Source: Vairimorpha necatrix
Taxonomy: Eukaryota
Length of the DNA stretch: 64,000 bases
NCBI GenBank assembly: GCA_036630325.1
Contig: CP142729.1
Location: 806,001 to 870,000, forward strand
Direction of reading: 5' to 3'
Below, piece by piece: positions 25,701-47,898 of the stretch. The position numbers and the translations under genes were made by a program. The first letter of the stretch is position 1; each line of letters begins with the position of its first letter. The notes below the pieces were generated by a model that saw only the letters and a program-made list of their open reading frames with translations, was not told the DNA's origin and did not search any database.

Positions 25701-26479
25701 TCAACTACAGTTTGCAGAATGTTTGAGTCGGTTCCTTTTTTGGAACATCTGATCGCTCCATTATTTCTAACCAGAGTTATTAATCCTGGTTTATTTTTTC
25801 CACCACTAGGTGTTTCAACTGTAGTGTATTTTTCAAGTTTTAAAGGTCTTGTAGATTGTCTCCAAGTTTCTTGTAAACACATAATTTCTGGTTTCTCCTT
25901 CTTAAGAAGAAACTCAAGTTCTTCTCTCTTATTAGAGAGATGATTAATGTTTAGACTTAAGAGTTTTATGTTCTCTTTGGTCTTTTTATTTACTTTACTA
26001 GATTTCTCTAGTTCTTTTCTATTATCATTTAAAACTTTAAAGCCTTTAGCTTTAACTGTCTTAATCAATAAATTTGCGTATAGTTTTTCAACTATTATTT
26101 TTGTAAAAGACGTGTCTCTTCGTCTATACTTTCTTGCTGTAATGATGGAATTCTCCAAAAGAGAGTTCTTCTTACATAAGTCTTTGAGGAGATCTTTCAC
26201 TCCATAAGGAATTCTTTGTATCTTGACAATACAATATTGTTCTTGTACTTTCTTCCACCACATATTCTTTCTAATAGAAAAATATTTGAGACTATTCAAT
26301 CTCGTTGTCGTTTGGAAAGTATTTTTAATCTGAGTAAATCCAATTGGATTATGCGTTTTTTTATTTAGAGATTTGAAAATATCACTCTTGTTATAGGAAA
26401 ATAATTTCCTATAATAACAGGACTTTAACAAAGATACTTTATTCATTGTTAAAGTCCTTAGATTCTCGGGCAGGCTCAC
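22754..26479 (-). CDS. LINE ORF2: APE endonuclease + reverse transcriptase + C-terminal zinc finger
   Basis: APE motifs LNIN, QETW, GDMN, SDH; RT motifs YRGISL, DFEKAYD, GVRQGCPCSP, MFADD; zinc finger CFLC...EHFLLEC. First in-frame ATG is at 26446. Confidence 0.95.
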   Translation of the reverse strand: MSLPENLRTLTMNKVSLLKSCYYRKLFSYNKSDIFKSLNKKTHNPIGFTQIKNTFQTTTRLNSLKYFSIRKNMWWKKVQEQYCIVKIQRIPYGVKDLLKDLCKKNSLLENSIITARKYRRRDTSFTKIIVEKLYANLLIKTVKAKGFKVLNDNRKELEKSSKVNKKTKENIKLLSLNINHLSNKREELEFLLKKEKPEIMCLQETWRQSTRPLKLEKYTTVETPSGGKNKPGLITLVRNNGAIRCSKKGTDSNILQTVVEFSSAGKWIKYLVLNVYIPQNKDLKRETLARLFSLLEKENFRNNYSEIIVMGDMNMQSSSLKKKLNVVGLPVTIKYNSNDGTRILKDGKRSKRKIDTIFRLKSNDNEKIIISKSWVLSDHLVLKRSIKLAVDKISDQLVYDKKMLENPKVIKKLKKKLCNQQLNMNNLPEIIQKVCTSLKIYKKRRVHTGLTMRWRYLKVFKEKRLAARAVMKNYNEINSIRFEYLKKRVDETKKLIRKDRSKLWALRGIKLFKSNRSREFWQWLKNRSVSIRLDQVALIDHNKLLQTCRAKKLEIANNFYADLASENDIDVNVYDKVDLVDLPPEITDEEFLSALKKCGNNKAAGPDEIPTELYKYLLTRAVEDKFFKFMLHEFNKYICGNSTPEYWSMANMICLHKKGDETDLNNYRGISLINTISKIYLKIINDRLTQFVEEQDILSRYQAGFRAGEECMNQITSLLEIVRRREFRGLNTIMCFIDFEKAYDNVSHDLLFEKLTKLNIPLYLINTIKDIYKYTTMRVKIGGDTSSGYSYRKGVRQGCPCSPMLFNIFINDIFDGIEGVLIPRSNTRVPGLMFADDIVVFGNNIDDLNNKINRISKWAVNNRMKINCTKSGVLEWNAHSNIQEFRSLYSLSTDFGVIEEVTEYRYLGVLIKRNTLEEHLVKDAAMRGKKALDALMPKLMNSSINLYFKAILIKCVLVPTLMYGSELWGMSSTRAGKINRILRKSIRMIFKRVLVPLDRVMDEFSIERIHIQAALSRFRAYNKWKHNKTIISDIISINPKERKTTWCSRTQRWLKRFVGNEYESSDSRFITTKIIDVLRSRRTLNTSLAASIANQYDIRNSQIKYVMNKINNRKIRTYTRLRCNLVKWSSAIAYSKRIPMSYRNKCFLCDGPQENLEHFLLECVCFTDIRTSFENKPPLLTCSKTNIREKTKQLLGNKIGLKNNPDKIKELCWTIEFLDRMVVSRRIIFEKKLKEITKQDN

Positions 26480-26527: not shown

Positions 26528-26850
26528 AAAAAAAAAATATAAAATTGTTTATTGTAAAAAAGACAGAATCAGCAAAACGAAGAAAAGCCTCCAAGCCACC
26601 AAAAACTCCACTAATAAAGAAAAAATCATCAATAATTGCGTTTACACGCCAGCATACCTTAACGGCCTCGCTTGTAGGAGAAAAGTTTGTTCCCATAGGA
26701 CACATCCTTAGTCATAATATGACTAGAGACCCACTTTCACGGGTCTAATGAAAAACGAAAACGCCTGGCTCAATACACCAATTAAGAACACGACTCAGTT
26801 CAGCGGAACAATACAGCATCAGTATCATGCCCGACCTCTCCCAGGTCAAA
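26528..26850 (-). repeat. Repeat R copy 2 (between ORF1 and ORF2, overlapping the last ~16 codons of ORF1)
   Basis: Near-identical to 22346-22670. Confidence 0.95.
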
Positions 26851-28449
26851 GTTTGGGTTTTCTTTATTTAATTCTTTAGTTATGTACCAACATGCTTTTA
26901 CAAGCGGTACAAAATTTTTATGCGTTCCAGAGAGTCTTTGCAGCTCTCCTAGAACAGTTGTTTTTGTTAAAGACATAAAGTCGGTGAAGAAATTAACTTC
27001 ATCGCAGATATTAGAACCTCCGAACTTTTCTTTAATTTTGCTTAGTACCTTTTGGCCCACGTGTTCTCTAATCATCAGAAGTACTACTTCCGAATCTTTA
27101 AATTGTTTTATAAGTGGTATATCTTTATTTTCCACATCAGCTAAGGCTGCCCAAGCGTCTCTAGATTGAGGTTTCCCTTTCAATCCGAGTCCAGACACAA
27201 GAGCTATCCTAAACTTACACTTGGAAATAATTCTACCATCCTTAATAATTTTCATAAGAGCTTCTTCAGATAGCTCTTTGGCCCAGTTTTTCTTTGGTAA
27301 AACTGGAACTCTTTTTTGTTGACATTTCTCATTTTTTCTGTCCTTCGTTTTTTTTGTAAAATTTATTCTCTGATTTTGTAATCTTTCCTTTTCATGATCT
27401 TTTTTAGGAATGATATTCTTTCTCTTTACAGCTTCATGATTAATCTTTTTGGGCACTTTTACATTGCCACTAGTTTCTACTTTAAGTGATTTAAATCTAT
27501 TAAAGTTGGTTTTATCTGTGGTTTTACCACTTCTGTTTTTCTTCAAGTCTATCTGGACTTTAGGCTTGAATGTGTGTTTGACAGATGTCCATCCGTCTTC
27601 GTTTATATGGAAAAGCTTGACTCCATTCTTAGGAGCTTTTCTTTTACCAGCTATAATAGCAGAGATAGTTGACAGATGTCTAACTACTGCTTTTTTATTA
27701 ATGAAAGCTAAGTCTAGCTTAACATCTTTTGTTTTAATATTTTTATTAATTATAATATTTGTAGACGCATTTGAGACACCTATACATTTTCTTTTGCCAT
27801 CATCTGACAATCGATCTTCTTCTTCTACTTTGACAGCAGACACGATATTTTTGACATTAATTAAAACATCTTCATTTATGATTTCTAATTTAGAAATATC
27901 ATTGTTTCCAGTAGCTAACTGAAGGGTTTCGCTACTGGTATCATTTGGAACATCGGAGTTATTATCCTTTTGTTCTACACATTCTTTTGAGTGATTCTCA
28001 ATCATCATCTCAATTTTATTTTTTGTTGATTCTGTAAATTGATTACTGTCATCCATCAGATTATTTTTAATCAAATTTTTTAATTTGATATTTTGTTTTT
28101 CTAGCTTGTCATGGAAGAGCTCCAGATATGTCTGCTGAATCAGTAATAATTCAGTAGTGCTAGCTATGTATCTTTTAAGATCACTAAGATCTTTATTGTT
28201 TTCTTTTTTTGATGTGTCAAAAATATCATTTTTATTAATTCTTTCCGAGAGAATTTTTATTTTCTTGAGAAAATATTTCATTTCTCCATCATTTTTGAAA
28301 GTAACACTTGGGAAACTTTTATTAGCATATACATGCTTAGTTTGTTGTTTTAAATACATTTCTATATCTAAATTGTTGTTTGGACCACCAAAGTGGTCAC
28401 TTTTTGCTCTACTGAGCTCGCTCCTGCTTTCTCTTGCTTTACCCTTCAT
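26800..28449 (-). CDS. LINE ORF1 (basic, Lys-rich, probable nucleic-acid chaperone), about 549 aa from MKGKARES
   Basis: Long ORF upstream of ORF2 and inside the TSDs. The ATG is 3 nt from the TSD. No recognisable domain. Confidence 0.75.
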   Translation of the reverse strand: MKGKARESRSELSRAKSDHFGGPNNNLDIEMYLKQQTKHVYANKSFPSVTFKNDGEMKYFLKKIKILSERINKNDIFDTSKKENNKDLSDLKRYIASTTELLLIQQTYLELFHDKLEKQNIKLKNLIKNNLMDDSNQFTESTKNKIEMMIENHSKECVEQKDNNSDVPNDTSSETLQLATGNNDISKLEIINEDVLINVKNIVSAVKVEEEDRLSDDGKRKCIGVSNASTNIIINKNIKTKDVKLDLAFINKKAVVRHLSTISAIIAGKRKAPKNGVKLFHINEDGWTSVKHTFKPKVQIDLKKNRSGKTTDKTNFNRFKSLKVETSGNVKVPKKINHEAVKRKNIIPKKDHEKERLQNQRINFTKKTKDRKNEKCQQKRVPVLPKKNWAKELSEEALMKIIKDGRIISKCKFRIALVSGLGLKGKPQSRDAWAALADVENKDIPLIKQFKDSEVVLLMIREHVGQKVLSKIKEKFGGSNICDEVNFFTDFMSLTKTTVLGELQRLSGTHKNFVPLVKACWYITKELNKENPNFDLGEVGHDTDAVLFR

Positions 28450-29655: not shown

Positions 29656-29683
29656 ATAGAAATTTGCACCTAGTTAAAAAACA

Positions 29684-29761
29684 TCGGTCCCGCCCTCCGC
29701 GACGTGGACGCTCTCTTGTGGAGGGTTTCGGTCCCACCCTCCACGACGTATACGCTCTCTT
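29684..29761. repeat. GC-rich 34-bp duplication with hairpin in the rDNA 3' spacer
   Basis: TCGGTCCCRCCCTCCRCGACGTRKACGCTCTCTT twice; stem GTGGAGGGT/ACCCTCCAC. Confidence 0.85.
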
Positions 29762-29796
29762 ATTTGTATACAACACCTACTATACATACAAAAAAA

Positions 29797-30019
29797 GCAG
29801 TAACCTCAAAATGTCGGCATACACCTTCATTCTTACAGTTCTGCTTAAAAGAGTAGTATTCTCCTAAATGTATCTTTGAGCTACGCTTCAGGCTTAAGAG
29901 GCTTTCAGCCTTAATCGAAACGACGTAGCTAAGCAACATAACTTAATAGTTAATCGCACTACCAGTGGTCATCACTTAGAGTTCCTCTCGTACTATCAAA
30001 GTTCACTCAAAAATACTTA

Positions 30020-30061
<42 letters not shown>

Positions 30062-30496
30062 TCTCACGTTCCTCATTACCGGGTGAACAATCCAACACTT
30101 CGTAACATATACACTACGATGATCAGAAGAGACGACATCGAAGAATCAAAAAGCAGAGTCGCTATGATCGCTTGCCTGCTACAAGCCAGTTATCCCTGTG
30201 GTAACTTTTCAATCACCCAATACATAATGAATGTAATTGGGATCGCTAGGCCAAGGTTTCCCTACTAAATACAGTCATATGCATAAAGTAAAGCAGATTT
30301 ATTCCCTTATAATAAACTGATGGTTACCATCCATCATTCATCTACCTTAGGACAGCTGTGTTACTTTTTAACAGCTGTACCGCCCCAGCCAAACTCCCCA
30401 TATATTCTAATAAATAAATATTCAAACATACTAGTGGTTTCACAATACTTCTCCCACCTCTCTACAATATACCGAATATTTATTAAAACATACTAA

Positions 30497-30528
<32 letters not shown>

Positions 30529-30627
30529 GATAAATAACAAGCCCGTTCCCTTGTCTCGTGGTTTCACAAAATTGTAAGTAGGGACAGTAGGAATCTCGTT
30601 GCTCCATTCATGCGCGTCACCAATTAA

Positions 30628-30680
<53 letters not shown>

Positions 30681-32275
30681 ATTCGCTTACACAACTTTAA
30701 CAATAAATGCACTGGGCAGAATTCACTTCTTGTAAATACAAAAAGCTATGTTTTTAATAAACAGTCAGATTCCTTACATAGTAAAAGTTCTAGCATGCTA
30801 GAGCCAATCTTTATCCCAAAGTTACAGATCTAATTTGCCGAATTCCCTTACTTACTTTAATTTAAAATATTTGTTATGATACAAAGACACCTGATGCGGT
30901 ATAGGTACGGTTAAAATTATTTTATTTTTATCAAGTATATATAATTAACTATTTCTTATCATGACAATCCATAGTTAAAATTAAATTTAATTCATTTATC
31001 TTAAATTTATTGAAATATACTGTCATTATCAAGTTACCTTATAATAATTTAATAAAGAATTATTAATCTTTTTTGTTTTTATAAATAACACCGATTCACT
31101 TCAATAATAATTGAAAACCCTAGTCTATATCTATACAAATATATTGTTACTGCCTCCAAGATCGGCTCATTTGTTTCTTCTATATATACTCACATATATA
31201 CTTCAATACAAACAAATTGCACAGCTACCTAAATATTTATTAGAAACATCTCATAAAAGTAGTAATCTTCTTCCATTTTATACAATAATACATTCGGTAG
31301 GTACGTTGTAACACGTTTCTTAGCGGATTTCTACTTCCATAACAACCGCCCTACTGTCTCAATGTATTCATCATATTTATGGTATAATATCTACTATTTA
31401 GAATATTTAATGTTTCATAAGGTTCATCCCTTTTTGCACATCATTCTTACAATCATGTGCCCACTAGTTATACAATAGATTCATTATATAAATTTAATTT
31501 ATATAATTCCATAGAATTAAAGATTTCTCATAGTTAAAAAACTATAACAGTGTCCTACATCTATGTCCTATATAATAATAACTGCTGTCCTGAGAGACAT
31601 TTCGCTGTGAACCAGCTACCACACAGTTCGATTGGTCTTTCGCCACTATACACATCTTAAATCATCGATTTGCACGTCAGAATGATTATGGTCCTCCAAT
31701 AAACTGTTGCTTATCTTCAACCAGAACATGTATAGTTCACTGTGTTTCGGGTCTTATAATTATAACTAATCAAGTTAATAAAGATTAAAAAATTTAATTT
31801 TTATCTTGCTATAATTATAATCTCCTTGGTCCGTGTTTCAAGACGGGTCCTTAAAAATAAGGCTAAACTCCACACATTTTCACAAGTTCCTTCGCAGTAC
31901 TTATTTTCTATCGGTATACCATTATATTTAACCTTAGATATTTCATTCTACCTTTATTCAAACTGCACTACCAAGCAGCTCTACTCAAGTACATTATTTT
32001 ATTCTATTAATAACGAATATAATATTCTCTATAAATATAATTAATAGAATAAACCATTTACAACTCCAATTAAGGATTACAATGGAGGGTTATTTCTTGT
32101 TCACTCGCTGCTACTAAAGAAATCCTAGTTAGTTTCTTTTCCTCCTTTTAATGATATGCTTAAGTTCAAAGGGTTATCAATACATTATAAATATATTAAT
32201 TAGGTAAATAATATACTTTCGTATTCTATTACGACCTTCATCGTTATGGTATCCTATTGATCCCATGTGTGGGCA
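29797..32275 (-). rRNA. Large subunit rRNA with fused 5.8S-like 5' region (about 2.48 kb)
   Basis: Conserved LSU motifs including the sarcin-ricin loop AGTACGAGAGGAAC, GAACTTAAGCATATC and AAGGTAGCCAAA. No ITS2. Ends are approximate. Confidence 0.97.
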
Positions 32276-32310
32276 AATTTAATAATTAAAATTAATTTAA
32301 ATTTAACTTA
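32276..32310 (-). other. Short AT-rich ITS (about 35 nt)
   Basis: Lies between the SSU 3' end (GGATCATAA) and the LSU start. Confidence 0.8.
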
Positions 32311-33557
32311 TTATGATCCTGCTAATGGTTCTCCAACAGCAACCATGTTACGACTTATATCAGATCTAATACATATTGTTCAAGTAGTTTTCACTAATTT
32401 CACAACACATATCATCTTAGATAGCGACGGGCGGTGTGTACAAAGAACAGGGACACATTCAATTCTACTTATTTAATAAAATTTACTAGCAATTCCAAGT
32501 TCAAATATCTCTTACAAAATATTATCCCATAAAGATTATATATCTATTGTATTGCGCGTGCAGCCCAAAATGTCTGAGGGCATAACGGACCTGTTTTAAT
32601 CCTTTCCTTCCTACACTGATTGTGTCTGTCTATTAATAAAAGGGTCTCACGTCTTGTTGAAATTAATCAAAACTTCACAGCATCCATTGAAAACGGCCAT
32701 GCACCACTATTATCATTCTCAGATTAAAAATCTTCTCTGAATAATAAAATATTGGTAAGTTACCTCGCGTTGAGTCAAATTAAGCCGCACAATCCACTCC
32801 TTGTGGTATTCTTCCGTCAATTTCTTTAATTTTCAATCTTGCGATCATACTATCCCCAGAGCCAAAAAACTCAAATTTCTATCATCTAATACAATTAATA
32901 TCATATCACATCGTCGGCATAGTTTACTGCTGGAACTACAATGGTATCTAATCATCTTTGCTCCTCCAGCTTACGTCCTTGTTCAAAAAATACATACAAG
33001 TGTACAGCTTTCGCTTCTGTTCGTCCAGTCAGGGTCGTCACATTTCATCTCTCTCCCAACTATACAGTACACCTCATATTGCTTCTTAAATATAAACTAC
33101 GGACTTTTTAACTGCATCAATCATCATACACACTCTTGGAACAAGTATTACCGCGGCTGCTGGCACTTGATTTGCCCTCCAATTAATCACCTCATATACT
33201 TTTACAATATGAAACAATAGAATATTACTTCCCATAACTGCCTCAGATAAAATCCATAGGTCAAGTTTCGCCCCTGCTGCAATCCTTAGACTTAGTAGCC
33301 GTCTCTCAGGCTCCTTCTCCGGAATATTACAAAGTAATACCGTTACCCGTCATTGCCTTGTTAAGCCATTACCTTAACAACTAGCTGATAGGTCTCACTC
33401 TTACTGTATATGTCTTATGCTACACTTTAACGCAGTTATACTAATTTAATACATTAAATAAAGTGAGTATTACTGAGCAGTCCATTTTTCCATATCAAAA
33501 ACATGCATGGGTTAATCTTAGGGAATAGCGTCTACGTCAGGCAGAATCAACCTGGTG
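32311..33557 (-). rRNA. Small subunit rRNA, microsporidian type (about 1.25 kb)
   Basis: Starts CACCAGGTTGATTCTGCCTGACG; contains GTGCCAGCAGCCGCGG and GTACACACCGCCCGTC; ends GCAGGATCATAA. Confidence 0.98.
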
Positions 33558-35906: not shown

Positions 35907-38495
35907 TCAGATGTCAAGAAGACAATCTGATTGGTCCGGACTATCCGCCGTCCACACTCTCCCCTTCATCAAATAAGATATCGTCTTTTCAGTTTCGGTT
36001 ACAGCAACTAAATCTTTTCGATTAATATCAAATGTTTTCCCTCCATTACAACTTCTTATTTGATAAGCACCTTTGCCTTTCTTAGTGATAATTTCGAACT
36101 CTTCATCTTCGTATGGTGATTCGAATTTTCTCTTCAATAGTGCGTGTTTCTTTAAAAGAACTGTATCTCCTATGTCTAAGTCATTGGGGTCTGCTTTATA
36201 TAAGTTTCGTTCGTTAGACTTAGCCTTTTTCTTATCTTCTACTTCCATTATTCTTTCTTTAATAATATTTATTTTCTCTCTTTTCTGTCTTACATATTCA
36301 ATTGGATCAACAAAATATAAATCAAAGTCTGATGGTATCTCAATTAAATTGCTTGGAACTAAAGGCTCTCTGCCGTATAGTAACATAAAGGGTGACGCAT
36401 TAAAGCGTTCCACTATACCAATCCTATATTGCATTAACACATACGGGAATACTCTATCCCAATTCTGTTCATGATCTACCATGGCTTTTGATATTTTTTC
36501 TATCATGGTCTTGTTTGTTCTCTCTGCAAGACCATTAGCTTGTGGGTGGTATGGAGATGAATGTTTAAATCTACTTCCCCATAACGATGCTACTGAGTTC
36601 ACTAGTTTATTTGTGAACTCTAATCCCTGATCACTCCTGATCGTTTTGACCGTCCCATGTCTTGAGAATACGTCTTCCACTAGAAATCTTGCTATCTCTT
36701 CTGCCGATTTCTTTTTTAGAACTTTACCCTCAACCCATTTAGTAAAGTAGTCGGTTGCGAGAACAATGAATTTGTGTCCTGATTTCGACTTTGGCAGTGG
36801 ACCGATGCAGTCGATCCCAACTTCCATGAATGTTCCTTCTACATTTGTTGGATATTGTTTGAACGGTCTATTCCTTTTAAATTTTAAACATGTTCCACAT
36901 GTTCTCAATATATCTTTCACTCTATCTCGAGATATTCCTGATCCCGCATGATGTATCTTCAAAAAATTGTACGTGTTATTGGCACAACTATGTCCAGTTA
37001 AGGAATGAGCTTCTAAGATTAATTTCGTAGACGCCCCATCGCCATCTTCCTTGGTTATTGATTTTAATCGGACTCTTGAAAGGCAGTCTGCTACTACATT
37101 ATCTTTCCCTTTCTTATATTCAATCACAAATTCCATGTCTGCCAGGAACATCAACCATCTAGCAATCCTTCCTTGTGGATTCTTGACTTTATAAAGCCAT
37201 ACAAGAGATTTGTGATCTGTTCTTATGACAAATTTTTTATGTAAATAGTTTTTAAAAGTCTTCACCGCATAAATTATTGCAAGAGTTTCCTTTTCAAGTG
37301 TAGGATAGTTCCCCTCAGCAGGCATTAGATTTCTGCTACAGAATCTGATGACCACATCCTTCTGATTCTTTTTCTGTTTGAGAACACCGCCTATACAATA
37401 ATCTGATGCATCTGCTTCTATTATGAACATCTCTTCCATATTTGGGAGTTCTAAAAACGCCGAATTTATTAATTCTAGTCGTAAGTCATTTACAGTTTTC
37501 TCGACTTCAATTTTTGAAAATTCTCTTTTCCTATTGATTATTTCGTTTAATATAAATGTTTTACTAGAAAAATTCTTAAAATAGTTTCTGAAGTAGCCTA
37601 TTCCGCCAACAAATGAGTGTAACTGTTTAATAGTTTCTATCTTTAGCTTATCTTTAAAAGGACCTAGTCTCTTTTCATCTGGGAATACCTTTCCATCCAT
37701 TACTGAATGACCTAATAAATCCACCCTCTTCGTGCAGAAAACGCTTTTCTCAGTACTTATTTTAAGTCCGTTTGCTAACAAGACTTGAAGGACCTCTCTT
37801 ACATCTCTGTGGTGTTCTTCATGCGTTTTACTATATATGGTAATGTCGTCCATATAAACTACGACTTTGGAATTTATTAAATTTCTGAAAACTCCATACA
37901 TTAGTCTCTGGAATGTTGCCGGGGCATTAGTTAAGCCGAAAGGCATCATTCTATATTGAAACTTACCTACTGGTGACATAAAGGCTGTCAACTCTTGTGA
38001 CTCTGGATCCATGGGCACTTGATGATACCCCTTTTCTAGATCTAATTGTGTGAAATATCTGGCTCCACTCAATGAATTAAGGCACTCCTCAATAGTTGGA
38101 GGCTGGCAAACTTCTTTTACCGTTCGATTATTTAATTCTCGATAATCTATACACATCCTGTGTCCTCCCGTGCGTTTTTTAACCACTACTATAGGTGCAT
38201 TCCACCTACTCACGCTTTCTGTTATGATTCCATTTTTAGCCAACTCTAGGCATTCGTTAATTATGAACTCCTTCTTTTTACCGTCCATAGTATAACTTCT
38301 CATATTAGCTATTGTCACGTTGGGGCGTAAATCAATTTTATGGGCTATTCCCAACGTATTGCTGAGACCTTCTTCACGTCCTTTCAGCCTTTCAAAGTAG
38401 TCTTTGACTAATTCCAACGTTGTGTTACATGTGCTGTGAACACTTGGCTGTCGTGATGTCTCTTTAGATATATGTCTTAACTCCAGACAATCCAT
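35907..38495 (-). CDS. pol (RT-RNase H-integrase) of element C
   Basis: YMDD, ADAS, SDQG and LAERTN motifs. The stop codon lies inside the 3' LTR. Confidence 0.9.
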   Translation of the reverse strand: MDCLELRHISKETSRQPSVHSTCNTTLELVKDYFERLKGREEGLSNTLGIAHKIDLRPNVTIANMRSYTMDGKKKEFIINECLELAKNGIITESVSRWNAPIVVVKKRTGGHRMCIDYRELNNRTVKEVCQPPTIEECLNSLSGARYFTQLDLEKGYHQVPMDPESQELTAFMSPVGKFQYRMMPFGLTNAPATFQRLMYGVFRNLINSKVVVYMDDITIYSKTHEEHHRDVREVLQVLLANGLKISTEKSVFCTKRVDLLGHSVMDGKVFPDEKRLGPFKDKLKIETIKQLHSFVGGIGYFRNYFKNFSSKTFILNEIINRKREFSKIEVEKTVNDLRLELINSAFLELPNMEEMFIIEADASDYCIGGVLKQKKNQKDVVIRFCSRNLMPAEGNYPTLEKETLAIIYAVKTFKNYLHKKFVIRTDHKSLVWLYKVKNPQGRIARWLMFLADMEFVIEYKKGKDNVVADCLSRVRLKSITKEDGDGASTKLILEAHSLTGHSCANNTYNFLKIHHAGSGISRDRVKDILRTCGTCLKFKRNRPFKQYPTNVEGTFMEVGIDCIGPLPKSKSGHKFIVLATDYFTKWVEGKVLKKKSAEEIARFLVEDVFSRHGTVKTIRSDQGLEFTNKLVNSVASLWGSRFKHSSPYHPQANGLAERTNKTMIEKISKAMVDHEQNWDRVFPYVLMQYRIGIVERFNASPFMLLYGREPLVPSNLIEIPSDFDLYFVDPIEYVRQKREKINIIKERIMEVEDKKKAKSNERNLYKADPNDLDIGDTVLLKKHALLKRKFESPYEDEEFEIITKKGKGAYQIRSCNGGKTFDINRKDLVAVTETEKTISYLMKGRVWTADSPDQSDCLLDI

Positions 38496-38608
38496 ATTTT
38501 TTTTATATTTCCGGTTTTTAATATATTTTTCCCAAGAGTAATTCTTTTGTTATGGAAATCAATCGCTCCTTTGTTTATTTCCAAGAAATCTCTTCCTAAT
38601 ATTACATC

Positions 38609-39757
38609 TTAGCTTAATGGACACATCACCTGGAGGGGGATTTTGTACCTCTTTCCTTCAATCTCCAGGACTCCATTAATGCTACCATAACTAGAAACTA
38701 TACCAGTGGCAGTTGTTATGCGTTCTCTTCTCATGTTTTCTAACTTACATTCTTGTATGAGACTTTTATCTATAAACGAATGCGATGCTCCTGTATCTAG
38801 TAAGGCATTAACAGTTTTATTATAAATTTTGACTTTTAAATAAACTAAATCAGTTTTATTTTCATTGACTTCGTTGAGTTTTTTAGTGTCTTTAGAAATA
38901 ATTTGAGCCCTTCTAGAACTTGAATAAGCCGCTTTTTCTTTCTTCAGATTTTGGTTTTTGCTCGGACATCTACTCGCATAATGTTGCCCTCCGCAGTTAA
39001 AACATGAAATTTCTGCTTTAGTATCTTTTCTCTGTTTTGTTATTAAAGATGAGTTTTTAGACTTTATTTCTGGTGTAATTTTATTATATTTACCTAATCT
39101 TTTAATAAAATCTTCGTTATCATTTAAGATTTTGATGATGCTCTTCCAGTCCATCGACTCTTTTACTTTGTCGTGAAGAACAGTTGGGAAAAACTCGATC
39201 AGTTCCATTTTGACTGTATTAAACTCTAATTTAGCTTTCCTATTCTGGGTTATAACCTCCATTATGAAATCTTCCAGGCCACTTTCGTTAGGACCAGATA
39301 TTAATATTCTGTATAGCTCTTTGATTTCATTTCTTGTCGTTTGTTTATTTACACCAAATTTAGTTATAAGAGCTTGTTTAAAACTGATGAAGTCAGTATA
39401 TTCGATGTCTTCCATCGCTATCATCCATTTTTTCGCTCTTCCCACGACATAGGGTTTCATATAGGATAGAAGTTTTTCGCCTTTCCATTCCCCTTCTAAA
39501 TACGAGAATTGTTCCAGCCATAGCTCAACTTCCATGCCTCCTTTACCACTGAATGGTCTTATGCCATCCTTCCTGAAGCCCACTGCTTCTAGTAAAGTAC
39601 TTAATCTGTCCTTCTCAACAGATTGGTTTGCGTTGTCGCCAGTGTTGACGTTAGCCGAAATATGAGGTTTTAGAGTATTCTTTTTATTATTGCCCATCCT
39701 CATAAATTCGAGGACGTATTTATATTTAATTCTGAAACGTTGTTTCAGAATTATCAT
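38609..39757 (-). CDS. gag-protease of element C
   Basis: CFNCGGQHYASRC knuckle and LLDTGA protease. An in-frame TAA precedes DVILGRDF. Confidence 0.85.
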   Translation of the reverse strand: MIILKQRFRIKYKYVLEFMRMGNNKKNTLKPHISANVNTGDNANQSVEKDRLSTLLEAVGFRKDGIRPFSGKGGMEVELWLEQFSYLEGEWKGEKLLSYMKPYVVGRAKKWMIAMEDIEYTDFISFKQALITKFGVNKQTTRNEIKELYRILISGPNESGLEDFIMEVITQNRKAKLEFNTVKMELIEFFPTVLHDKVKESMDWKSIIKILNDNEDFIKRLGKYNKITPEIKSKNSSLITKQRKDTKAEISCFNCGGQHYASRCPSKNQNLKKEKAAYSSSRRAQIISKDTKKLNEVNENKTDLVYLKVKIYNKTVNALLDTGASHSFIDKSLIQECKLENMRRERITTATGIVSSYGSINGVLEIEGKRYKIPLQVMCPLS

Positions 39758-40011
39758 GTTTCAGATGTCAAGAAGACAATCTGATTGGTCCGGACTATCC
39801 GCCGTCCACAGTAAACTACTTTATCTAGATGTTTCAGCCATTCCTTTTCTTCTTCAGTTTTAGAATGGTCAACGGCTAACAAACTTTCTTCAAATACATT
39901 TTTTGTATTGTTCGCGTTAAAGTTTGGTTAAACCTTTCTATTTGCCCGTTTGATTGTGGGTGACGGGGCCTACTATGTTTTTGAACAGTAAAAAGGTCGA
40001 AACAAAGGTTA

Positions 40012-43000
40012 TATAAGTGCTTAACATAATTGGGGTTTAATATTATTACTGATTATAACATCCCCCCTCCAGACGGTTAGTCTCCTTCAACATACTTTAA
40101 ATCCCCTACACCCTTAAGATCATAATGCTTTTTTTTCACCAACCTTCCATTCTCTAATCTCACTATATATGAATCCCCTGGACATAGCTCAATCACTCTT
40201 CCCATGTCTAAAAATCGACCCTTACTATACTTACTACATCCCTTTAAATTCTCATTCTTGGCAACCCTAACTATCTGGTTCCTTTTGAACTTTTCTCTAA
40301 ACCAACTTTTGAACTGTTGCGCATACTTTCCCTCTGGACTATTCTCCATACTAACATTTCCTGTATTATCGGTTAAAGCTTCTACTGGCGTGCACTTAAT
40401 ACCAGCATGAAAACTTAAATTATATTTCTCAATAGCTTCATAAACCTTGTTCTCGAATTTCTCTTTTTGGCTCTTTAAAATACTATCTCTTACAGTTCTA
40501 ATAACTCTTTCTACTCTTCCATTACTTCTGTGCGACTCAACGCTGACCTTTCTATGACTAATATCCAAATTTCTACATAGCTCGGTAACTTTTTCGTTGC
40601 AAAACTCTTTACCATTATCCGTAATGATTTCCTCTGGTTTTCTACCCTGTTTACACAAATCCTTGATAAATTCGGCAATTCCAGATGCGTGCTTGCTCTT
40701 CAATACTCTGCCCCATAATCTCCTTGTAAAGTAATCAACTGCCAAAACAATAAACGCTTTCTCATCCCTAAATTCTATTAAATCTAAGCCAACCTTCTCT
40801 AAATATCTTGTCGTGTTCACTAAATCAGTACCGCCACTCGTTTTTCTGGCAGAAATCTGACAAGTCTCGCAATTCTTAAGGACCTTTTCGATCTGATCCT
40901 TAATTCCTGGCCAATAATACTGTTTCCTCAACTCATAATATACCGTTGTTCTGCTTCTGTGGCTCAAATTTACATGACAATCCATTATTAATCTCTCTCT
41001 GTCTTGTTCCAAAGGCATCTCGCCTTCTCTACCACTATCAAATACCCAGTATTCTTTACCTTCTACAATTTTTACATGCTTATTTCTTTTCCCTTCTTTT
41101 TGTCTATCACGGCGTGTTTCATTTCTCTTTTTCTTTGCATCTTTTTCTTTTGTATATATCCTACTTAGCGCATCGGCTACGACCATATTTTCTGGAGTTC
41201 TATATTCTATCACGAAATCAAATTCCTGAATCTTCTCGGCCCATCTATTAATTCTAGCATTCTTAAAGTCGGGCTTGTTTCTTATTTCGCCCAACGCTTT
41301 ATGATCAGTTTCTATTCTAAATTTCCTACCTCTTAATTCATATTCAAACTTTTTAACGCCCCAAAAAACTGCGTACATTTCTTTTTCTGATATACCATAA
41401 TTAACTTCCGTAACGGTAAACTTCTTAGACGCTCACTGTACTGGCACCCATTCTCCTTGATTATTTTTCTGTAACAGTACTGCGCCCATGCCTACATTAC
41501 TAGCGTCAGTCCTCAACAAAAATTCTTTATCATAGTCTGCTATTTGCAGCTTTCCTAGGCCTTTCAATACTTCTTTTAAATTATTAAACTCGTTTTTCAT
41601 ATCATCCGTCCACTTCCAATTATCATTCTTCCCTTTTAAACTATCTGTCAACCTAACTGTCAATCCAGCGTAATTCTTAATAAAATCTCTGAACCAACCC
41701 GTCATTCCTAAAAATCTTCTTACATCTGACACGCATGTTGGTATCGGAAACTCTAGGGCTTCATTTTTCTTTATCTCTGACGGTATTATATCTTCTCCAT
41801 TTAAAGTGACTCCCAATAATTTAACTTCCCGTTGACAAAACTGAACTTTATTTGCATTCAGCTTCATATTGTTTTCCTTCAGTCTATTTAATACCCTTTT
41901 CACTAATTGCTCGTGTTCTCCTATCGTTCGGCTGTACAACACAATATCGTCCATATACACCTCTACTCCTTTGCCTTTCATATCTCTAAAAATCCTATCC
42001 ATAATTCTCTGCAATATCTGCGGGCTATTCTTATATCCCATAACCATAGAGTTCCATTCATAAACCTTGCCATTAAAATCAAACGCCGTCTTATGTTTAT
42101 CCTCCTCCTCTATCTCAATACTATAGAAGGCCTCTTTTAAGTCAAAAACCGTCATATATTTTGCACCTTGTGTAGCTCTTACAACATCTCTTATGTTAGA
42201 CAATCTATACTCGTCCTTTTCTACAATATCGTTCAATGCCATCAAATTACTAACCAGTCTTATCTCACCATTTGGCTTTCTGATTGACCTTATAGGATTC
42301 CTCCAACTTGAATTTGACTCTCTTATCACTTTCCTTTTTAATAAATCTTCTAGATGTAGCTCTGTATCTTTTATCAACGCCTGCGGAACCATTTGTCCCT
42401 TTTTAAATACCTTCATACCCGCTTCAGTATTAATTTTACATTTTTCCAGTTTACAATATTTTATCTCCTCTTTTCCTAACTTAAAAACCTCTCCAAAACT
42501 CTTAGCATACTTATCTAAATTCAATCTGATTCTCTTACTCTCCTCTTTAACAGCATATTCTTTTTGGTTTTTCTCAAATTTGACTATAGTCCTCTTTTTG
42601 TTCTTCTAAAATCTCGCTCCTGACTTGACTCTGATTCCCTACCTACTTCAATTTTGCAACTGTTATCCTCGTTATTCTTTTTATAATAATTATCTCTACT
42701 AATCTTTAGTCTGCATTCAAACACCCTATGCCCTTGTCTATCACAATAGAAGCATCTCGGTACTCTCGATTTTTGTCTTGGTCGTTCTCTACTAATTTCT
42801 TCATTTATAGTCCTAGAAATAATTTTTCTCATTTCCTCATATATCTTTTCTTCCTCCCCTACTTCCTTAATCCTTAACAATAGCTTCTTCCTTATTCCTT
42901 CAATATTTTCTTCCTTTTTGATATTTCTCACAATAAAATCTTTTAAATCCATCGAAGCCAACTTGAACAGCTCACTCTTCCATTTCTCTCTATCCACATC

Positions 43001-43153
43001 TCTCAAATCCAATTCATACAATATACGCTCTAACTCCTGTAACATCTTTCTGACCACTTGGCCACAGTCCTCTCTTGTGAACTCTTCTTTAGGTATCGCC
43101 CCCATATAAGTGCTTAACATAATTGGGGTTTAATATTATTACTGATTATAACA
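40012..43153 (-). mobile_element. Compact Ty3/Gypsy element D (49-bp LTRs), coding region disrupted
   Basis: Identical LTRs 40012-40060 and 43105-43153, TSD GGTTA, PBS TGGGGGCGATACC (tRNA-Pro-like), PPT GGAGGGGGGA. ORFs 42584-43120, 41433-42524 and 40077-41378; a TGA replaces the Trp codon of QWASKK. Confidence 0.95.
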
Positions 43154-44367
43154 GGTTATTTATATGGGAATTGCAGAATTCCTTTCCATTATCGCTTTGA
43201 AGGATCTTGGGCGGACCAGTCATATTGTAAAATAAAAATTTAAGGTTTTTTGTAACCTCATCACCTGTTTTACTTTTCAATGGAAAGGCCCAGGCAAACT
43301 TAGAATACACATCTATTATTGTTAAAATCCAACAATACCCACCGTTAAGCCTTTTATAGCGTGTCATATCGATTAAATCGATCATAATTCGTTCCATCGG
43401 TTTAGAGGCCGTAATATGTACTTGGCGCTCTTTATTTTTTAACGGTTGTGATTGTCCACATGTGATGCATTCGGAAACGATTTTTCTTATAATGTCCCTA
43501 GGAATTTTAAAAAAAACCTTATTGCATGATGCTTCGAATCGGTTAACGCCCCTGTGATGAAGCTGGTGGAAAGCTCTACATTCCACTTCCATGGCCTCAA
43601 GCTGGTCACTATGAAAAACCTTGAGGTGGTTCCCATTGGCCTCGTCCCTTAAATATAGCGCCCCATCTATAAGAAGGTAATTACCGGCTTTTTGTTTCAA
43701 CCGTTTTTTTTGTTGCTTTTCTAAAACAACTTCATTGTCCCTGCCTAGTAAAACTAATTTTAAATTACTGTATTCACTAGCATTTCTGGGAGGAAGAATC
43801 ATTTTTAAGGGGATAAAAAAAATCTTTTTATTTATCAACTAGCGTATGCTTTCCCGTTTTGAAAACGGGATCTAAAAGTTTAGTTTTTTAATATGTCCCT
43901 AATTGGTAATTTTCGTTAAGTTTCCATTTAAGGATAATGAATTTAAAAAAAGAAAACATGATTTTTAAAAAACTTTTTAGCAACATATAAGAAGTTATGT
44001 TGTTTTAAAACATTAAATAATCTCAATGAGATAATTTTGGGAACTTCTAAGCTCAATTTTTGACACTTACATTCAGCTTTTTCTTTGGTTAATTGTTTTT
44101 TGGATTTTTCGTGGAAGGGTTAAATAAATTCTAAAAAACGATTTTGACGATATTTTGGAACTGAGTTTTACAAAAATAATAATTAAATCAAAAAAGTATT
44201 AACTAATAACATACACACTTAGAATAGTCAAATTAAAGCAATAAATCTATATTTGATAATATATTAACGGAAGAGGCACAAAATGTATCGTTTAGAAATT
44301 TCAAAGTCACAAAAAAGAGGGGTAAAAAATTAAATAAAATTCTTTTATATATATGATTGTTATTATG

Positions 44368-47300
44368 TGTGTTTATTTTCCATAATGAGGGGTAAAAATA
44401 ATAAGGATATATAACATCCCCCCTCCAAGACGGTAGTCTCATACTAGAACTCATTAATCCCAAGCAGACCTTTTAAATCATAATGCCGCCTTTTCACGAT
44501 CCTACCATTTTCCAAACTAACTAAGTACGAGTCACCTCCGCAAACTTCCTTGATAACACCATATCCTAAAAACCTTCCTTTCTCATACTTACTACAACCC
44601 GATAAGTTCTCTTTCTTCGCTACCCTAACTCTCTGACCTTTATAGAATTTCTCTCTTTTGCGAGCCACAAACCTCCTACTATAAAATCCTTCAGGTCCAT
44701 TCTCGATCATAACATGGCCCGTTTCGTCTCTTGAGGCCTCAAACGGTGTACATCTCAACCCTTCATGATAGCTGTTATTATAACGCCATATACATCTATT
44801 AACCTTGGCTTCAAAATTCACAGCATCATCTTTCAATATTCCTTCTCTTATGGTTCCTATTACCCTTTCCACTCTTCCATTACTTCTATGACTTTCTACG
44901 CTTACTTTCCTATGTAATACATTTTCCTCTGAACACCAATTCCTCATATATTCATTACTAAATTCTTTACCGTTGTCAGTAATTATTTCTACCGGTTTCA
45001 TTCCTGATCCACACAACTGTTTTAAAAATCCTACAACCGAGCTTCCGCGTTTGTCCTCTATTACTTTTCCCCAAACGATCCTAGTATAATAATCAATCAC
45101 GACCAACACATATTTCCCTAAATCTCTAAACTCAATCAAATCCAAAGCAACCTTTTCCAAATAAAATCTTGAACTAACAAAATCACAACCACCACTCTTT
45201 TTCCTATTATATATTTGGCAAACTTCACACTTCTTTAAAACATCCTCGATATCCTTCTTCATACCCGGCCAATAAAATTCAAACTTCATTGCATAGTACA
45301 CTGATCCTAAACTTCTATGTCCCAAATTTTCATGAGCATTGACAATTAAACCTTCACGCAATTCTTTCTTTGGAATCTCCGCTTCTCTACCAGAGTCAAA
45401 TACCCAAATTTCCTTCCCATCAACAACTTTAACATGCTTGTCCCATTTACCCTGTGCCTGTTTAATACTTCTCTCCTTATCCATTAGCGTTTTCTCATTT
45501 TCATGTACCCTACTCAGTGCATCTGCTACAACCATGGTACTAGGCTCTCTATATTCAATGCTAAAGTCGAACTCTTGAATCTTTTCAATCCACCTGTTAA
45601 TTCTATTATTGTTAAATGCTGGTTTATTTCTAATCTCGATCAATGCCTTATGATCAGTTTCTACCCTAAATCTTCTTCCGCGTAGTTCATATTCAAACTT
45701 TTTAATTCCCCAAAAGACTGCATACATCTCCTTCTCACTGATTCCATATCTCGTTTCCGTAGGCGTAAACTTTTTTGATGCCCACTGTACTGGTACCCAA
45801 TTACCTTGATCATCTTCCTGCATTAAAACAGCACCCATTCCAACATTACTCGCATCCGTGCGTAACAAAAATTCCTTATTATAATTAACAATTGCTAAAC
45901 CTTTTAAATCCCTAATCACTTCCCTTAAACTAATATATTCTTTTTCCATTTCTTCTGTCCATTTCCAATTACTTCCTCGTCCTTTAAGAGAATCCGTCAA
46001 CGCCAATGTACGTTTTGCATAATTATCAATATGATTTCTAAACCATCCAGCCAGCCCAAGAAACTTCCTAACATCTGATACACACTCCGGTTTGGGAAAT
46101 TCTAACGCTTCATTTTGCTTTATTTCAGATGGCAGTATCTCCTTGCCATTAACTGTTACTCCTAACAACATCACCTCTCGTTTACATAATTGAACCTTAG
46201 CCAAATTAATTTTCATACTATTCTCCTCTAATATATCCACAGCCTCTTTCAACAATTTGTCGTGACCCTCTCTTGTCTTACTATGAATCACAATATCGTC
46301 CATATAAATTTCGATTCCCTTACCAATAAATTTTTCAAAAATCCCATTCATTATTCTTTGTAATATCTGCGGTGAGTTTTTAAACCCCATGACCATCGAA
46401 TTCCACTCGTATACCTTTTTATTAAACTCAAAAGCCGTCTTAAACCTATCCTTCTCTTCAATCTCAATACTATAAAACCCCTCCTTTAGATCTATCACGG
46501 TAAAAAATTCAGATCCCTGTGTACTTCTAATAACATCTCTTATCCTAGTTAACTCATAAGGATCCTTCTCTACAATGTCATTAAGAGCAATTAAATTACT
46601 TACTAATCTTATATCACCATTCGGTTTCTCAATCGCTCTAATGGGATTTCTCCAGTCAGATGTCGACCTTCTAATTATCTTTCTTCTTTCCAAATTATTA
46701 ATATAATCTTCCGTCTTCTTCAACAAAGCCTGAGCTATAGCCTGCCCTTTTTTAACAACTTTCTTGCCTTCTTGAGTCTTGATAATACATTTTTCAACCT
46801 TACAAAAACTAATATCTTCATCCTCTCTTCCTCCTACCCGTGAAATAATCTCCTCTAAATACGCGATGCCTCTTACATCCCTTCTCAACAGAACTCTCTT
46901 ATTATTGTCCCTTTTGCTATAATCTTGTATATCCCCTAAATTTTTCTTCTTACGTTTCCCACCATCAACATTATAATAATCACATTTGTCCGAATTGGAA
47001 TCGTCATCACATTTACCCTCTAAGTCTAATTGCACTTTACATTTACCAACATAATTAAAACTACTTTTATTTCTTCTGTCTTCAGAATCTCGCCTCATTC
47101 CCCTACAAAATCTAACACTATGGCCTAACTTCCCACAATTGTAGCAACGCATATTCTTTTTATTTTCCTCACGAGACAACTTATTCTTCTCCTCAAATTT
47201 AGCCCATAACGCTAGGGACAACTCTTCAAATTCTTTTTTTCTCACTTGTTCCTTTTCCTCCTGAATAGCTAGCAACTCTAATTTTTCCTCAATTTCCTTC

Positions 47301-47551
47301 CAACTACCCTCTTGCGAGATCCTCTCAACAATAAAATTTCTCAATAAAATAGAACCTCTCCTAAAAATTTCTAATTTAAATCCACACTCATCAATTTTCT
47401 CTAAAAACAACTCATAAACAATCCTTTTAACCTCTTTTAATATTATTCTAGCCTCTTGGCCACGGTCCTCCTTTGTAGACCCATTTTCTGGTATCGCCCC
47501 CATGTGTTTATTTTCCATAATGAGGGGTAAAAATAATAAGGATATATAACA
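44368..47551 (-). mobile_element. Compact Ty3/Gypsy element E (49-bp LTRs), intact
   Basis: Identical LTRs 44368-44416 and 47503-47551 (TG..CA), TSD TTATG, PBS TGGGGGCGATACC, PPT GGAGGGGGGA. Confidence 0.97.
44444..47518 (-). CDS. Single gag-RT-RNase H-integrase polyprotein of E (1024 aa), no protease motif seen
   Basis: CYNCGKLGHSVRFC, YMDD, TDAS, H..H..C..C, TDNG and RVERV motifs. Confidence 0.93.
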   Translation of the reverse strand: MENKHMGAIPENGSTKEDRGQEARIILKEVKRIVYELFLEKIDECGFKLEIFRRGSILLRNFIVERISQEGSWKEIEEKLELLAIQEEKEQVRKKEFEELSLALWAKFEEKNKLSREENKKNMRCYNCGKLGHSVRFCRGMRRDSEDRRNKSSFNYVGKCKVQLDLEGKCDDDSNSDKCDYYNVDGGKRKKKNLGDIQDYSKRDNNKRVLLRRDVRGIAYLEEIISRVGGREDEDISFCKVEKCIIKTQEGKKVVKKGQAIAQALLKKTEDYINNLERRKIIRRSTSDWRNPIRAIEKPNGDIRLVSNLIALNDIVEKDPYELTRIRDVIRSTQGSEFFTVIDLKEGFYSIEIEEKDRFKTAFEFNKKVYEWNSMVMGFKNSPQILQRIMNGIFEKFIGKGIEIYMDDIVIHSKTREGHDKLLKEAVDILEENSMKINLAKVQLCKREVMLLGVTVNGKEILPSEIKQNEALEFPKPECVSDVRKFLGLAGWFRNHIDNYAKRTLALTDSLKGRGSNWKWTEEMEKEYISLREVIRDLKGLAIVNYNKEFLLRTDASNVGMGAVLMQEDDQGNWVPVQWASKKFTPTETRYGISEKEMYAVFWGIKKFEYELRGRRFRVETDHKALIEIRNKPAFNNNRINRWIEKIQEFDFSIEYREPSTMVVADALSRVHENEKTLMDKERSIKQAQGKWDKHVKVVDGKEIWVFDSGREAEIPKKELREGLIVNAHENLGHRSLGSVYYAMKFEFYWPGMKKDIEDVLKKCEVCQIYNRKKSGGCDFVSSRFYLEKVALDLIEFRDLGKYVLVVIDYYTRIVWGKVIEDKRGSSVVGFLKQLCGSGMKPVEIITDNGKEFSNEYMRNWCSEENVLHRKVSVESHRSNGRVERVIGTIREGILKDDAVNFEAKVNRCIWRYNNSYHEGLRCTPFEASRDETGHVMIENGPEGFYSRRFVARKREKFYKGQRVRVAKKENLSGCSKYEKGRFLGYGVIKEVCGGDSYLVSLENGRIVKRRHYDLKGLLGINEF

Positions 47552-47592
47552 TTATGTAAGTATTTTCTTATTTTTTATTTCGTTTTATCTAG

Positions 47593-47665
47593 TATGCCAT
47601 GGTCGAGTGGTATGCTGTTTGTTTCTTTCACATGGTCCGCGGGTTCGAATCCAAACAAGTGCGTT
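47593..47665 (+). other. Degenerate tRNA-like sequence (A and B boxes) inside transposon B
   Basis: TGGTCGAGTGG ... GGTTCGAATCC. The stems do not pair. Confidence 0.5.
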
Positions 47666-47710: not shown

Positions 47711-47898
47711 AGGGGTCAACGCTTGCACGGGATGCAAATCCTAGCGGTCAACGCCTGCACGGCGTTGCATTTACTAGGGGTCAATGCTTGCACGGGATGC
47801 AAATCCTAAGGGTCAACACCTGCACGGTGTTGCATTTACTAGGGGTCAATGCTTGCACAAGCTGGAAATCCTAGGGGGTCAACGCTCGCGTAGCAACC
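47711..47898. repeat. Subterminal tandem array of ~32-bp units ending in the TIR of B
   Basis: Five alternating units with core GGTCAAYRCYTGCAC, then the TIR. Two inverted cores lie at the left end (35221-35259). Confidence 0.9.

Follow-up and report, generated by a model that had tools for sequence, protein, structure and literature searches.

Can a long terminal repeat (LTR) retrotransposon multiply without a protease of its own? Retropepsins count as a hallmark of retroviruses and LTR retrotransposons, whose replication is considered to require them. The question is raised by a small element, here called element E, in a 64,000-nt stretch of Vairimorpha necatrix contig CP142729.1 (positions 806,001 to 870,000; hereafter the window). 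Element E (44368-47551, minus strand, 3184 bp) is a Ty3/gypsy-type LTR retrotransposon in which we detected no such enzyme. We are highly confident that it belongs to an old, microsporidia-wide lineage of ultra-compact Ty3/gypsy elements (~3.0-3.2 kb, LTRs of ~40-50 nt), which lost the protease between nucleocapsid (NC) and reverse transcriptase (RT) and in which a short, disordered and hypervariable tether was left, and that element E is a young, apparently intact copy.

The preliminary description of this DNA had reported identical 49-bp LTRs, a perfect target-site duplication (TSD) and one intact open reading frame (ORF) of 1024 amino acids (aa) that fills about 97% of the element, and all three were borne out. 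The 5' LTR (47503-47551) and the 3' LTR (44368-44416), both on the minus strand, are identical over their 49 nt, lie in direct orientation and have TG...CA ends. With up to three mismatches allowed, the window has no further match to this sequence, and 100 shuffles gave an expectation of 0. The TSD is TTATG, read directly at 47552-47556 (upstream in element orientation) and identically at 44363-44367 (downstream). It had also been remarked that such LTRs fall below the usual size. This stands for the 49 nt as measured, but LTRs of 45-73 bp are already catalogued for microsporidian elements (PMC4202319, Table S1: S 45 bp, L 50 bp, CK 73 bp).

Read in element orientation, the LTR runs from the TATA-like TGTTATATAT to a final ACA, with CCCC at nt 25-28, an ATG at nt 34-36 and an AATAAA at nt 40-45. 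In the 5' LTR this ATG (47516-47518) is the first of the ORF. A second, family-conserved ATG straddles the junction of the LTR with the primer-binding site (PBS), being composed of the A of ...ACA and the TG of TGG, and most family proteins start with M-x4-5-M-(A/G). Both ATG features are also present in two other elements of the window: element D (40012-43153, minus strand), a diverged and decayed family member, and element A (4165-7603, plus strand), the nearest outgroup. The TGG-type PBS TGGGGGCGATACC (47490-47502, minus strand) directly follows the 5' LTR and overlaps codons M6-G-A-I-P; its 13 nt match only twice in the window, in elements E and D. Self-priming of the Tf1 type was considered and rejected, the complementarity between LTR and PBS being just 4-6 bp by eye. 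At the other end, the polypurine tract (PPT) GGAGGGGGGA (44417-44426, minus strand) abuts the 3' LTR, and the tract with its upstream neighbourhood recurs in element D and in a relative's locus, L001, described below. In several relatives of element E the frame stays open across the PPT and reaches the 3' LTR, so that their proteins have C-terminal tails of the type ...G-G-D-V. The coding frame thus overlaps with every one of these signals: promoter, start codon, PBS and PPT. The LTRs compared (elements E, D and A, the 3' end of L001, and an Anncaliia algerae consensus read by eye) follow one layout: a TGTT start, an A/T-rich stretch, CCC(C) 0-10 nt before an ATG, and an end shortly after.

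The ORF (44444-47518, minus strand as are all its segments; 1024 aa and a TAG stop, from ORF calling and Pfam) covers 3075 of the 3184 nt, or 96.6%, and reads Gag-NC-linker-RT-RNase H-integrase (IN). For comparison we used 26 near-full-length members of the family, namely the element E protein and 25 of its 45 closest matches, chosen for near-complete length (985-1188 aa). AlphaFold2 predicts a Gag-like helical domain at aa 16-122 (47153-47473; helices 16-39, 44-54 and 57-66 and a long helix 73-122) with a predicted local distance difference test score (pLDDT) of ~87-93. Foldseek against the PDB gave no significant match for this domain, the best capsid-like row being the Arc C-lobe (4x3x, E-value 4.8, template modelling (TM) score 0.55); ESM Atlas look-alikes with zf-CCHC, Retrotrans_gag or Ty3_capsid, at 0.89-0.94, serve as a lead only. 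A CCHC zinc knuckle of the nucleocapsid type follows at aa 124-138 (47105-47149; Pfam zf-CCHC, E-value 0.0036, 17.8 bits, below the cut-off of 20.8). Counted to its first Cys (aa 125-138), it is preceded by 124 aa, close to the ~125 first estimated, and its residues C125, C128, H133 and C138 do not vary among the 26 members. At the position of the protease lies a linker, aa 139-218 (46865-47104), which is charged, unconserved and predicted to be disordered, and which carries the motif NKSSFNY.

The other enzymes are all present. RT occupies aa 219-520 (45959-46864; RVT_1 at 296-456, E-value 2.2e-31), with a pre-RT helix from aa 219, C-x-I-x-T from aa 244 and the polymerase motif YMDD, whose D407 and D408 are invariant in all 26 members. 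RNase H follows at aa 521-680 (45479-45958; RT_RNaseH_2 at 520-619, RT_RNaseH at 546-650). IN spans aa 717-1024 (44447-45370) with H2C2 zinc domain, DDE core and C-terminal domain (Integrase_H2C2 at 717-772, rve at 792-870; PFV integrase matched at an E-value of 1.3e-9), and H729, H734, C764, C767 as well as D793, D848 and E884 are again invariant throughout. RVT_1, RNase H, H2C2 and rve were found in all 26 members, zf-CCHC was reached in 18. The Pfam order RVT_1, RT_RNaseH, Integrase_H2C2, rve is the Ty3/gypsy Pol order. By RT, RNase H, IN and its ends, element E is therefore a Ty3/gypsy element, and it departs from the class in the retropepsin.

Two other classifications were rejected. A non-autonomous element of the type of terminal-repeat retrotransposons in miniature or large retrotransposon derivatives (TRIM/LARD) is ruled out by the intact ORF with all catalytic residues of RT, RNase H and IN. 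DIRS/Ngaro elements and hepadnaviruses do carry out reverse transcription without a retropepsin; they have no DDE integrase (DIRS uses a tyrosine recombinase) and no canonical LTR, PBS or PPT. Assignment to DIRS/Ngaro is ruled out by the presence of rve and Integrase_H2C2, the direct LTRs and the invariant D, D and E, together with the lack of a recombinase by Pfam.

Between elements E and D, pN/pS (from the proportions of nonsynonymous and synonymous differences) was 0.24-0.36 in the enzymes RT, RNase H and IN; the 16 codons of the knuckle gave 0.35, the 30 codons of the linker 0.52 and the Gag helices 0.54. In each segment pN thus lies clearly under pS; because synonymous sites are saturated (pS 0.77-0.94), we give no dN/dS ratio. 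Elsewhere a 98%-identical 1024-aa protein exists (P0001). From the identical LTRs, the perfect TSD, the intact frame, this near-identical protein and the invariant catalytic residues we infer that element E is a young, apparently intact and probably active copy.

The absence of an aspartic protease and of a D[TS]G motif between knuckle and RT had already been noticed in the preliminary description, and Pfam, a scan of side ORFs, AlphaFold2 and Foldseek now agree on it. Pfam returned no protease family for the element E ORF even at an E-value of up to 1, no D[TS]G was found between its knuckle and RT, and its other frames contain no ORF of at least 50 aa with a protease motif. When the 26 members were rescanned, none gave a retropepsin family at an E-value of up to 0.1. 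As positive controls, the same library detected the proteases of two ORFs within the window, at 38609-39757 (Asp_protease_2, E-value 1.1e-7; RVP, 6.8e-5) and at 4208-5119 (Asp_protease_2, 7.7e-4; RVP_2, 1.3e-3). Peptidase_A17 rows in three of the 26 members were rejected as proteases, for they score 13.6-14.1 bits against a cut-off of 22.3 and fall within RT/RNase H (residues 483-615) rather than in the Gag-RT interval. If the linker is taken to run between the final Cys of the knuckle and the beginning of the conserved pre-RT helix, its length across the 26 members is 31-170 aa (median 49), and 33-56% of its residues are charged (K, R, E or D). Just one of these linkers (P0010) contains a D[TS]G, at an unconserved spot; shuffles contain 0.60 on average and at least one in 45% of cases, and by this measure the single motif is at chance level.

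The spacing and the predicted structure point in the same direction. In an alignment with Ty3 Gag-Pol (7q5b), the knuckle lies at Ty3 residues 253-285 and the RT block begins at 616, which leaves 331 residues for the protease and junction region of Ty3 versus 130 in element E. AlphaFold2, run on aa 1-300 with the 26-row family alignment, assigned a pLDDT below 50 to aa 145-216. Foldseek against the PDB gave 0 matches at an E-value of up to 0.001 and no retropepsin, just retroviral nucleocapsid knuckles and the weak Arc row, so that the fold check suggested earlier for a cryptic protease ended with predicted disorder. BLASTP found no similarity between the element E linker and the protease of element A, and the stretch from ~aa 219 on (L..Y..VF ... 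C-x-I-x-T) is the usual N-terminal region of a Ty3/gypsy RT. Because the Pfam scans, the linker properties, the Ty3 spacing, AlphaFold2, Foldseek and the start of RT all agree, the protease site of this family is, as judged from sequence and model, a short tether predicted to be disordered. A longer, protease-bearing parent with the same gag or LTR, which the preliminary description had considered, did not turn up either: phmmer with aa 1-240 against 1.84 billion representatives gave 34 matches, all of them short fragments or knuckle-only, and the window holds no LTR copy beyond the two of element E.

Is the loss a property of one copy or of a lineage? In a protein search, a group of 45 proteins with E-values from 0 to 1e-104 stood clearly apart from the next matches, which start at 4.5e-80. 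A precomputed protease Pfam domain is present in 0 of these 45 closest proteins versus 20 of the next 75 listed. Nosema granulosis, Vairimorpha necatrix and Enteropsectra breve are the sources of the named members of the group. Most others lie on contigs of ~3.04-3.16 kb for ORFs of ~1000 aa, which fits whole elements of the size of element E, and from this the LTRs of most members may be deduced. We built trees with FastTree (66 rows) and IQ-TREE (31 rows), in which the protease-less family falls on one side of a branch with supports of 96-100. The family and P0045, a further protein without protease (knuckle at 158-173, RVT_1 from 301), are together on one side of a branch (98/99), and the protease-bearing element A is their sister (100). 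The order is thus the family, P0045, element A and then, on the far side, all other protease-bearing Ty3/gypsy proteins. This order, in trees for which no root was inferred, points to one old protease loss on the stem of the family and P0045; a single loss would explain the pattern if the root is placed among the non-microsporidian elements. The earlier suggestion of a lineage trait is hence supported by the 0 of 45, by the 0 of 26 rescanned members and by the well-supported branch.

Element D had been the starting point of this suggestion, and it does share with element E the size (3142 bp), the LTR length (identical LTRs of 49/50 nt), the 13-nt PBS and the lack of a protease. It is flanked by the TSD TAACC, its ORF survives as three fragments (178, 327 and 433 aa), and its RT piece groups inside the family beside P0005. 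Element D is nested in the integrase ORF of another element (43146-43802, minus strand; flanks of element D at 39960-40011 and 43154-43200), and a 218-aa rve-containing ORF ends exactly at its 5' LTR (...SDNGKEFCNSHINNL, then the LTR).

A search of genome contigs for the DNA of the relatives gave three loci, L001, L002 and L003, in bins of bacterial metagenome-assembled genomes (MAGs). None has both LTRs, 0 repeat families of at least 25 nt were found in them, L003 is without a long sense ORF, and only the 3' end of L001 was informative. The loci lie on short contigs in MAGs titled Clostridium sp. and Turicibacter sp., and one family protein (P0020) is annotated as bacterial. These copies in bacterial bins are eukaryotic contamination.

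The 15-20 nt upstream of the PPT (GAGACTAMCCGTCTGGAGG...) are kept at the nucleotide level in element E (44427-44443), element D (40062-40085) and L001 (2700-2722), elements that are otherwise ~50-73% identical. The stretch includes a small AGAC...GTCT inverted repeat, and in several family proteins it is translated as ...GETPS..GGDV tails.

How the family relates to protease-bearing elements can be seen from element A (3439 bp), identified by Pfam, BLASTP and the trees. It has LTRs of 71/70 nt that differ by one indel in a T run, the TSD ATAGC, the PBS TGGTGGAG, and the PPT AGAGGGGGA adjoining the 3' LTR. With element E it shares the single-frame design, the mini LTR (71 nt) with CCCC and internal ATG, the junction ATG and the 5-bp TSD. 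Element A differs in that a retropepsin (F-D-T-G-S; Asp_protease_2, RVP_2) lies directly between knuckle and RT, and in that it is 255 bp longer, has ~195 aa of Gag before the knuckle versus 124, and is frameshifted into at least four pieces. The BLASTP alignment of both starts exactly at C244, and RT-IN identity is 34%. Because of this low identity and the frameshifts, element A is a cousin of element E and not its parent. A second protease-bearing element of the window (35907-39757) has its gag-protease and pol ORFs split, with the Pfam protease in the ORF 38609-39757.

As a sequence the family is not new. It is already catalogued in the 2014 study of Parisot et al. as a consensus from A. 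algerae, 'Aalg retro L', listed as complete with an LTR of 50 bp, an ORF at 32-3049 and 3127 bp (PMC4202319, Table S1). The row for this element in Table S2 gives 19, 20 and 45 under three strains, which we read as copy numbers, and the tree of Figure S1 puts it beside Nant_A, Nant_F, Nbom_Nbr5 and Nbom_C in 'Microsporidia Group 1'. Further elements of this group in Table S1 measure 3.6-3.7 kb, with ORFs of ~1000-1130 aa. Compared by eye, element E has the traits of this group, namely ~3.1 kb, an LTR of ~50 nt starting from TGTTATATAT, an ORF start at ~nt 32-34 in the LTR and a single ORF of ~1000 aa. The consensus likewise begins with TGTTATATAT, has CCC directly before the LTR ATG and an ATG at the ...ACA/TGG junction, and encodes a CCHC knuckle followed by F-N-K-x-S-L-S-Y; it differs in its genus and in its PBS, TGGCG... 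The main text of that paper notes the single polyprotein, with 0 occurrences of the word 'protease', and the accessible part of a 2026 genome paper repeats just the point of the single polyprotein (PMC13174016). Our literature searches gave no statement of a Ty3/gypsy lineage without protease, the original description of Nbr (Xu et al. 2006), which may already cover it, lying outside their scope. In the literature covered, the missing protease thus appears to have gone unremarked.

Among the better-known systems, Ty3 of S. cerevisiae (4ol8, 7q5b) is similar in its RT-RNase H-IN order and its CCHC nucleocapsid, and its RT-RNase H (4ol8) matches aa 273-671 of element E at an E-value of 1.7e-54. 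Ty3 also makes a 5-bp TSD, as found for element E; it is organised in two frames with a +1 frameshift and has 340-bp LTRs and a length of 5.4 kb. Tf1 of S. pombe is a single-ORF Ty3/gypsy element, and there processing and the excess of Gag depend on the protease. DGLT-A of Dictyostelium has Gag in frame with Pol in a single ORF too, but according to the portion of the paper available (PMC6101501) it encodes a protease at aa 231-425 of 1437.

How, then, could element E use its polyprotein? The preliminary description had named three ways, namely processing by a protease in trans, processing by a host protease, and function without cleavage. The anatomy of the element suggests an ordinary LTR-retrotransposon cycle. 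The 49-nt LTR would act as a host-style mini-promoter, with an A/T-rich, TATA-like start and a CCC motif with the ATG within a few nt, and translation would start inside the LTR. For microsporidian genes, a CCC motif shortly before the ATG and 5' untranslated regions (UTRs) below 7 nt have been described (PMC2803860, in the part accessible). Since 5' UTRs are reported to be this short, U3 may comprise ~30 nt and R+U5 ~20 nt. A tRNA would prime at TGGGGGCGATACC, plus-strand synthesis would start from GGAGGGGGGA, and the DDE integrase would make the 5-bp duplication. Gag, NC, RT, RNase H and IN would be made 1:1 as one 1024-aa protein without retropepsin cleavage, and the flexible linker could leave the NC/Gag part and the enzymes able to act in the tethered state, in a mode that resembles a ribonucleoprotein rather than a matured capsid.

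Such an uncleaved, tethered use of the polyprotein is a conjecture that we favour only with reserve. In its favour, the linker behaves as a spacer, with a five-fold range in length and almost no conserved positions, as expected for a tether, and the lineage has persisted across genera with all its other domains under constraint. The overall account of a protease-less compact lineage with an ordinary cycle and an uncleaved polyprotein is the best explanation we can offer, though we put it forward tentatively. The farther-reaching proposition that a whole LTR-element lineage completes its cycle without an aspartic protease from any source, one uncleaved protein being enough for binding of its own RNA, for reverse transcription and for integration of the copy, is bolder, and we regard it as rather doubtful. 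Several observations weigh against these proposals. To our knowledge, cDNA synthesis or integration depends on the protease in every studied Ty1, Ty3, Tf1 or retrovirus system. Protease-bearing relatives (element A and the element at 35907-39757) lie in the same window and could provide help in trans. The Gag part of element E is small (~124 aa) and without a demonstrated capsid fold, and the LTR of element D ends in TA, not CA. Furthermore, a motif NK-x(3-5)-[YF], often ...NK..NY, occurs 5-18 residues past the knuckle in 16 of 26 members (aa 150-156 in element E); 1000 shuffles gave a mean of 3.1 and a maximum of 9 of 26, figures that do not amount to a probability because the members are related. 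Element A has ...GTNY... at the matching place. The motif could be a retained cleavage site of the NC/protease type, form an NC tail or have arisen by coincidence from AAT AAA codons.

The first of these three options would suit an explanation in which the family is self-sufficient in RT, RNase H and IN and borrows the retropepsin of co-resident Ty3/gypsy elements (relatives of element A, 35907-39757) to cut the linker. Two such elements within the same 64 kb, the architecture that the nearest outgroup A shares as a whole with the family, and the motif in 16 of 26 members together with the ...NY... of element A all fit this scheme. However, both protease-bearing copies of the window are broken, element A by frameshifts and the other with its gag-protease and pol ORFs split; at 34% RT-IN identity between elements A and E the site specificity need not be common; and one entire subclade (P0014, P0021, P0022, P0024 and P0026) lacks the motif. 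Because the lineage spans several genera, a parasitic dependence on the proteases of other families would be hard to sustain, as constant co-occurrence would be required all along. We consider processing in trans unlikely, yet it is the most serious of the rivals. A cellular protease might instead replace the lost enzyme and cut the exposed linker. The predicted disorder and high charge make the linker an accessible substrate, and a cut without sequence specificity would agree with its variability; no candidate host protease lies in the window, and to us this route seems improbable.

A free Gag-NC protein could also arise at the RNA level, if the Asn-Lys codons after the knuckle (AAT AAA) acted as a polyadenylation signal and cleavage took place at the UA of a Tyr codon 9-15 nt further on, creating a UAA stop. 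Element E has AAT AAA for N-K with a TAT 12 nt later, the published A. algerae consensus has the same codons at the same place by eye, and the accessible part of PMC2803860 describes stochastic use of AAUAAA in E. cuniculi. But AATAAA occurs five times in the element E ORF versus 5.3 predicted from base composition, five of the eight N-K dipeptides of element E are AATAAA anyway, and the linker of element D has no AATAAA, which makes this mechanism very improbable. The idea that the linker hides a highly diverged protease, or that element E arose by a recent deletion and has ceased to transpose, is largely refuted and hardly to be believed. The interval from the knuckle to C244 is 105 aa in element E, just ~29 aa shorter than the ~134 aa of the protease-bearing element A, and so by length alone there is room for a remnant; other members, however, have merely 57 aa in this interval. 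Neither a catalytic motif nor a fold match nor BLASTP similarity to the element A protease was found in this region of predicted disorder, the trait is common to 45 database relatives with intact ORFs of ~1000 aa, and identical LTRs with a TSD do not suit a dead copy.

Whichever way the polyprotein is handled, a widespread and apparently active Ty3/gypsy lineage without protease offers a natural test of three possibilities: that Gag-Pol maturation is bypassed, that other elements supply it, or that the host runs it. It also gives a lower size bound for an autonomous LTR element, with promoter, start codon, R/U5, PBS and PPT overlapping the frame within 3.2 kb. If indeed no protease from any source takes part, these elements of 3.0-3.2 kb with LTRs of 40-50 nt would be the smallest autonomous LTR retroelements, and polyprotein maturation would be dispensable for this class. 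Many annotation pipelines by default require LTRs of at least 100 bp and a full set of domains, and for this reason protease-less elements with LTRs of 40-50 nt are likely to be missed or misclassified. Copies of the family are already mislabelled in the bacterial MAG bins.

The genomic setting deserves a short description. The window is microsporidian; Rfam places the small subunit (SSU) rRNA at 32311-33557 and then the large subunit (LSU) rRNA at 29668-32196, both on the minus strand. This rDNA unit (29668-33557, order SSU to LSU) is embedded in a transposon cluster, retroelements surrounding the rRNA genes of the window. ARAGORN and Rfam found no 5S and no tRNA genes in the 64 kb. A tRNA-like stretch lies at 47590-47660 (plus strand), ~40 bp from the 5' LTR of element E, with the D-loop-like GTCGAGTGGT and the T-loop-like GGTTCGAATCC. 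Neither ARAGORN nor Rfam (E-value up to 1) called a tRNA here, and it is possibly a decayed tRNA gene; its position near element E is of interest since tRNA genes are targets of Ty3-type elements. Just past it, at 47711-47877 (plus strand), four copies of a 32-37-nt unit (AGGGGTCAAYGCTTGCACGGGATGCAAATCCTA...) form a higher-order tandem repeat of 65 nt, and each unit holds a short inverted repeat TTGCA...TGCAA.

Adjoining the rDNA, a 1230-aa ORF (22754-26446, minus strand), read from its translation only, has an RT motif of the non-LTR type (...FADD...) and an endonuclease-like N-terminal half. A 549-aa ORF (26800-28449, minus strand) lies upstream of it, and this looks like an element of the long interspersed nuclear element (LINE) type. 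Finally, at 2212-3609 (minus strand) there is a 465-aa ORF that is very rich in Cys and Lys, with repeated CC, CxC and KR runs.

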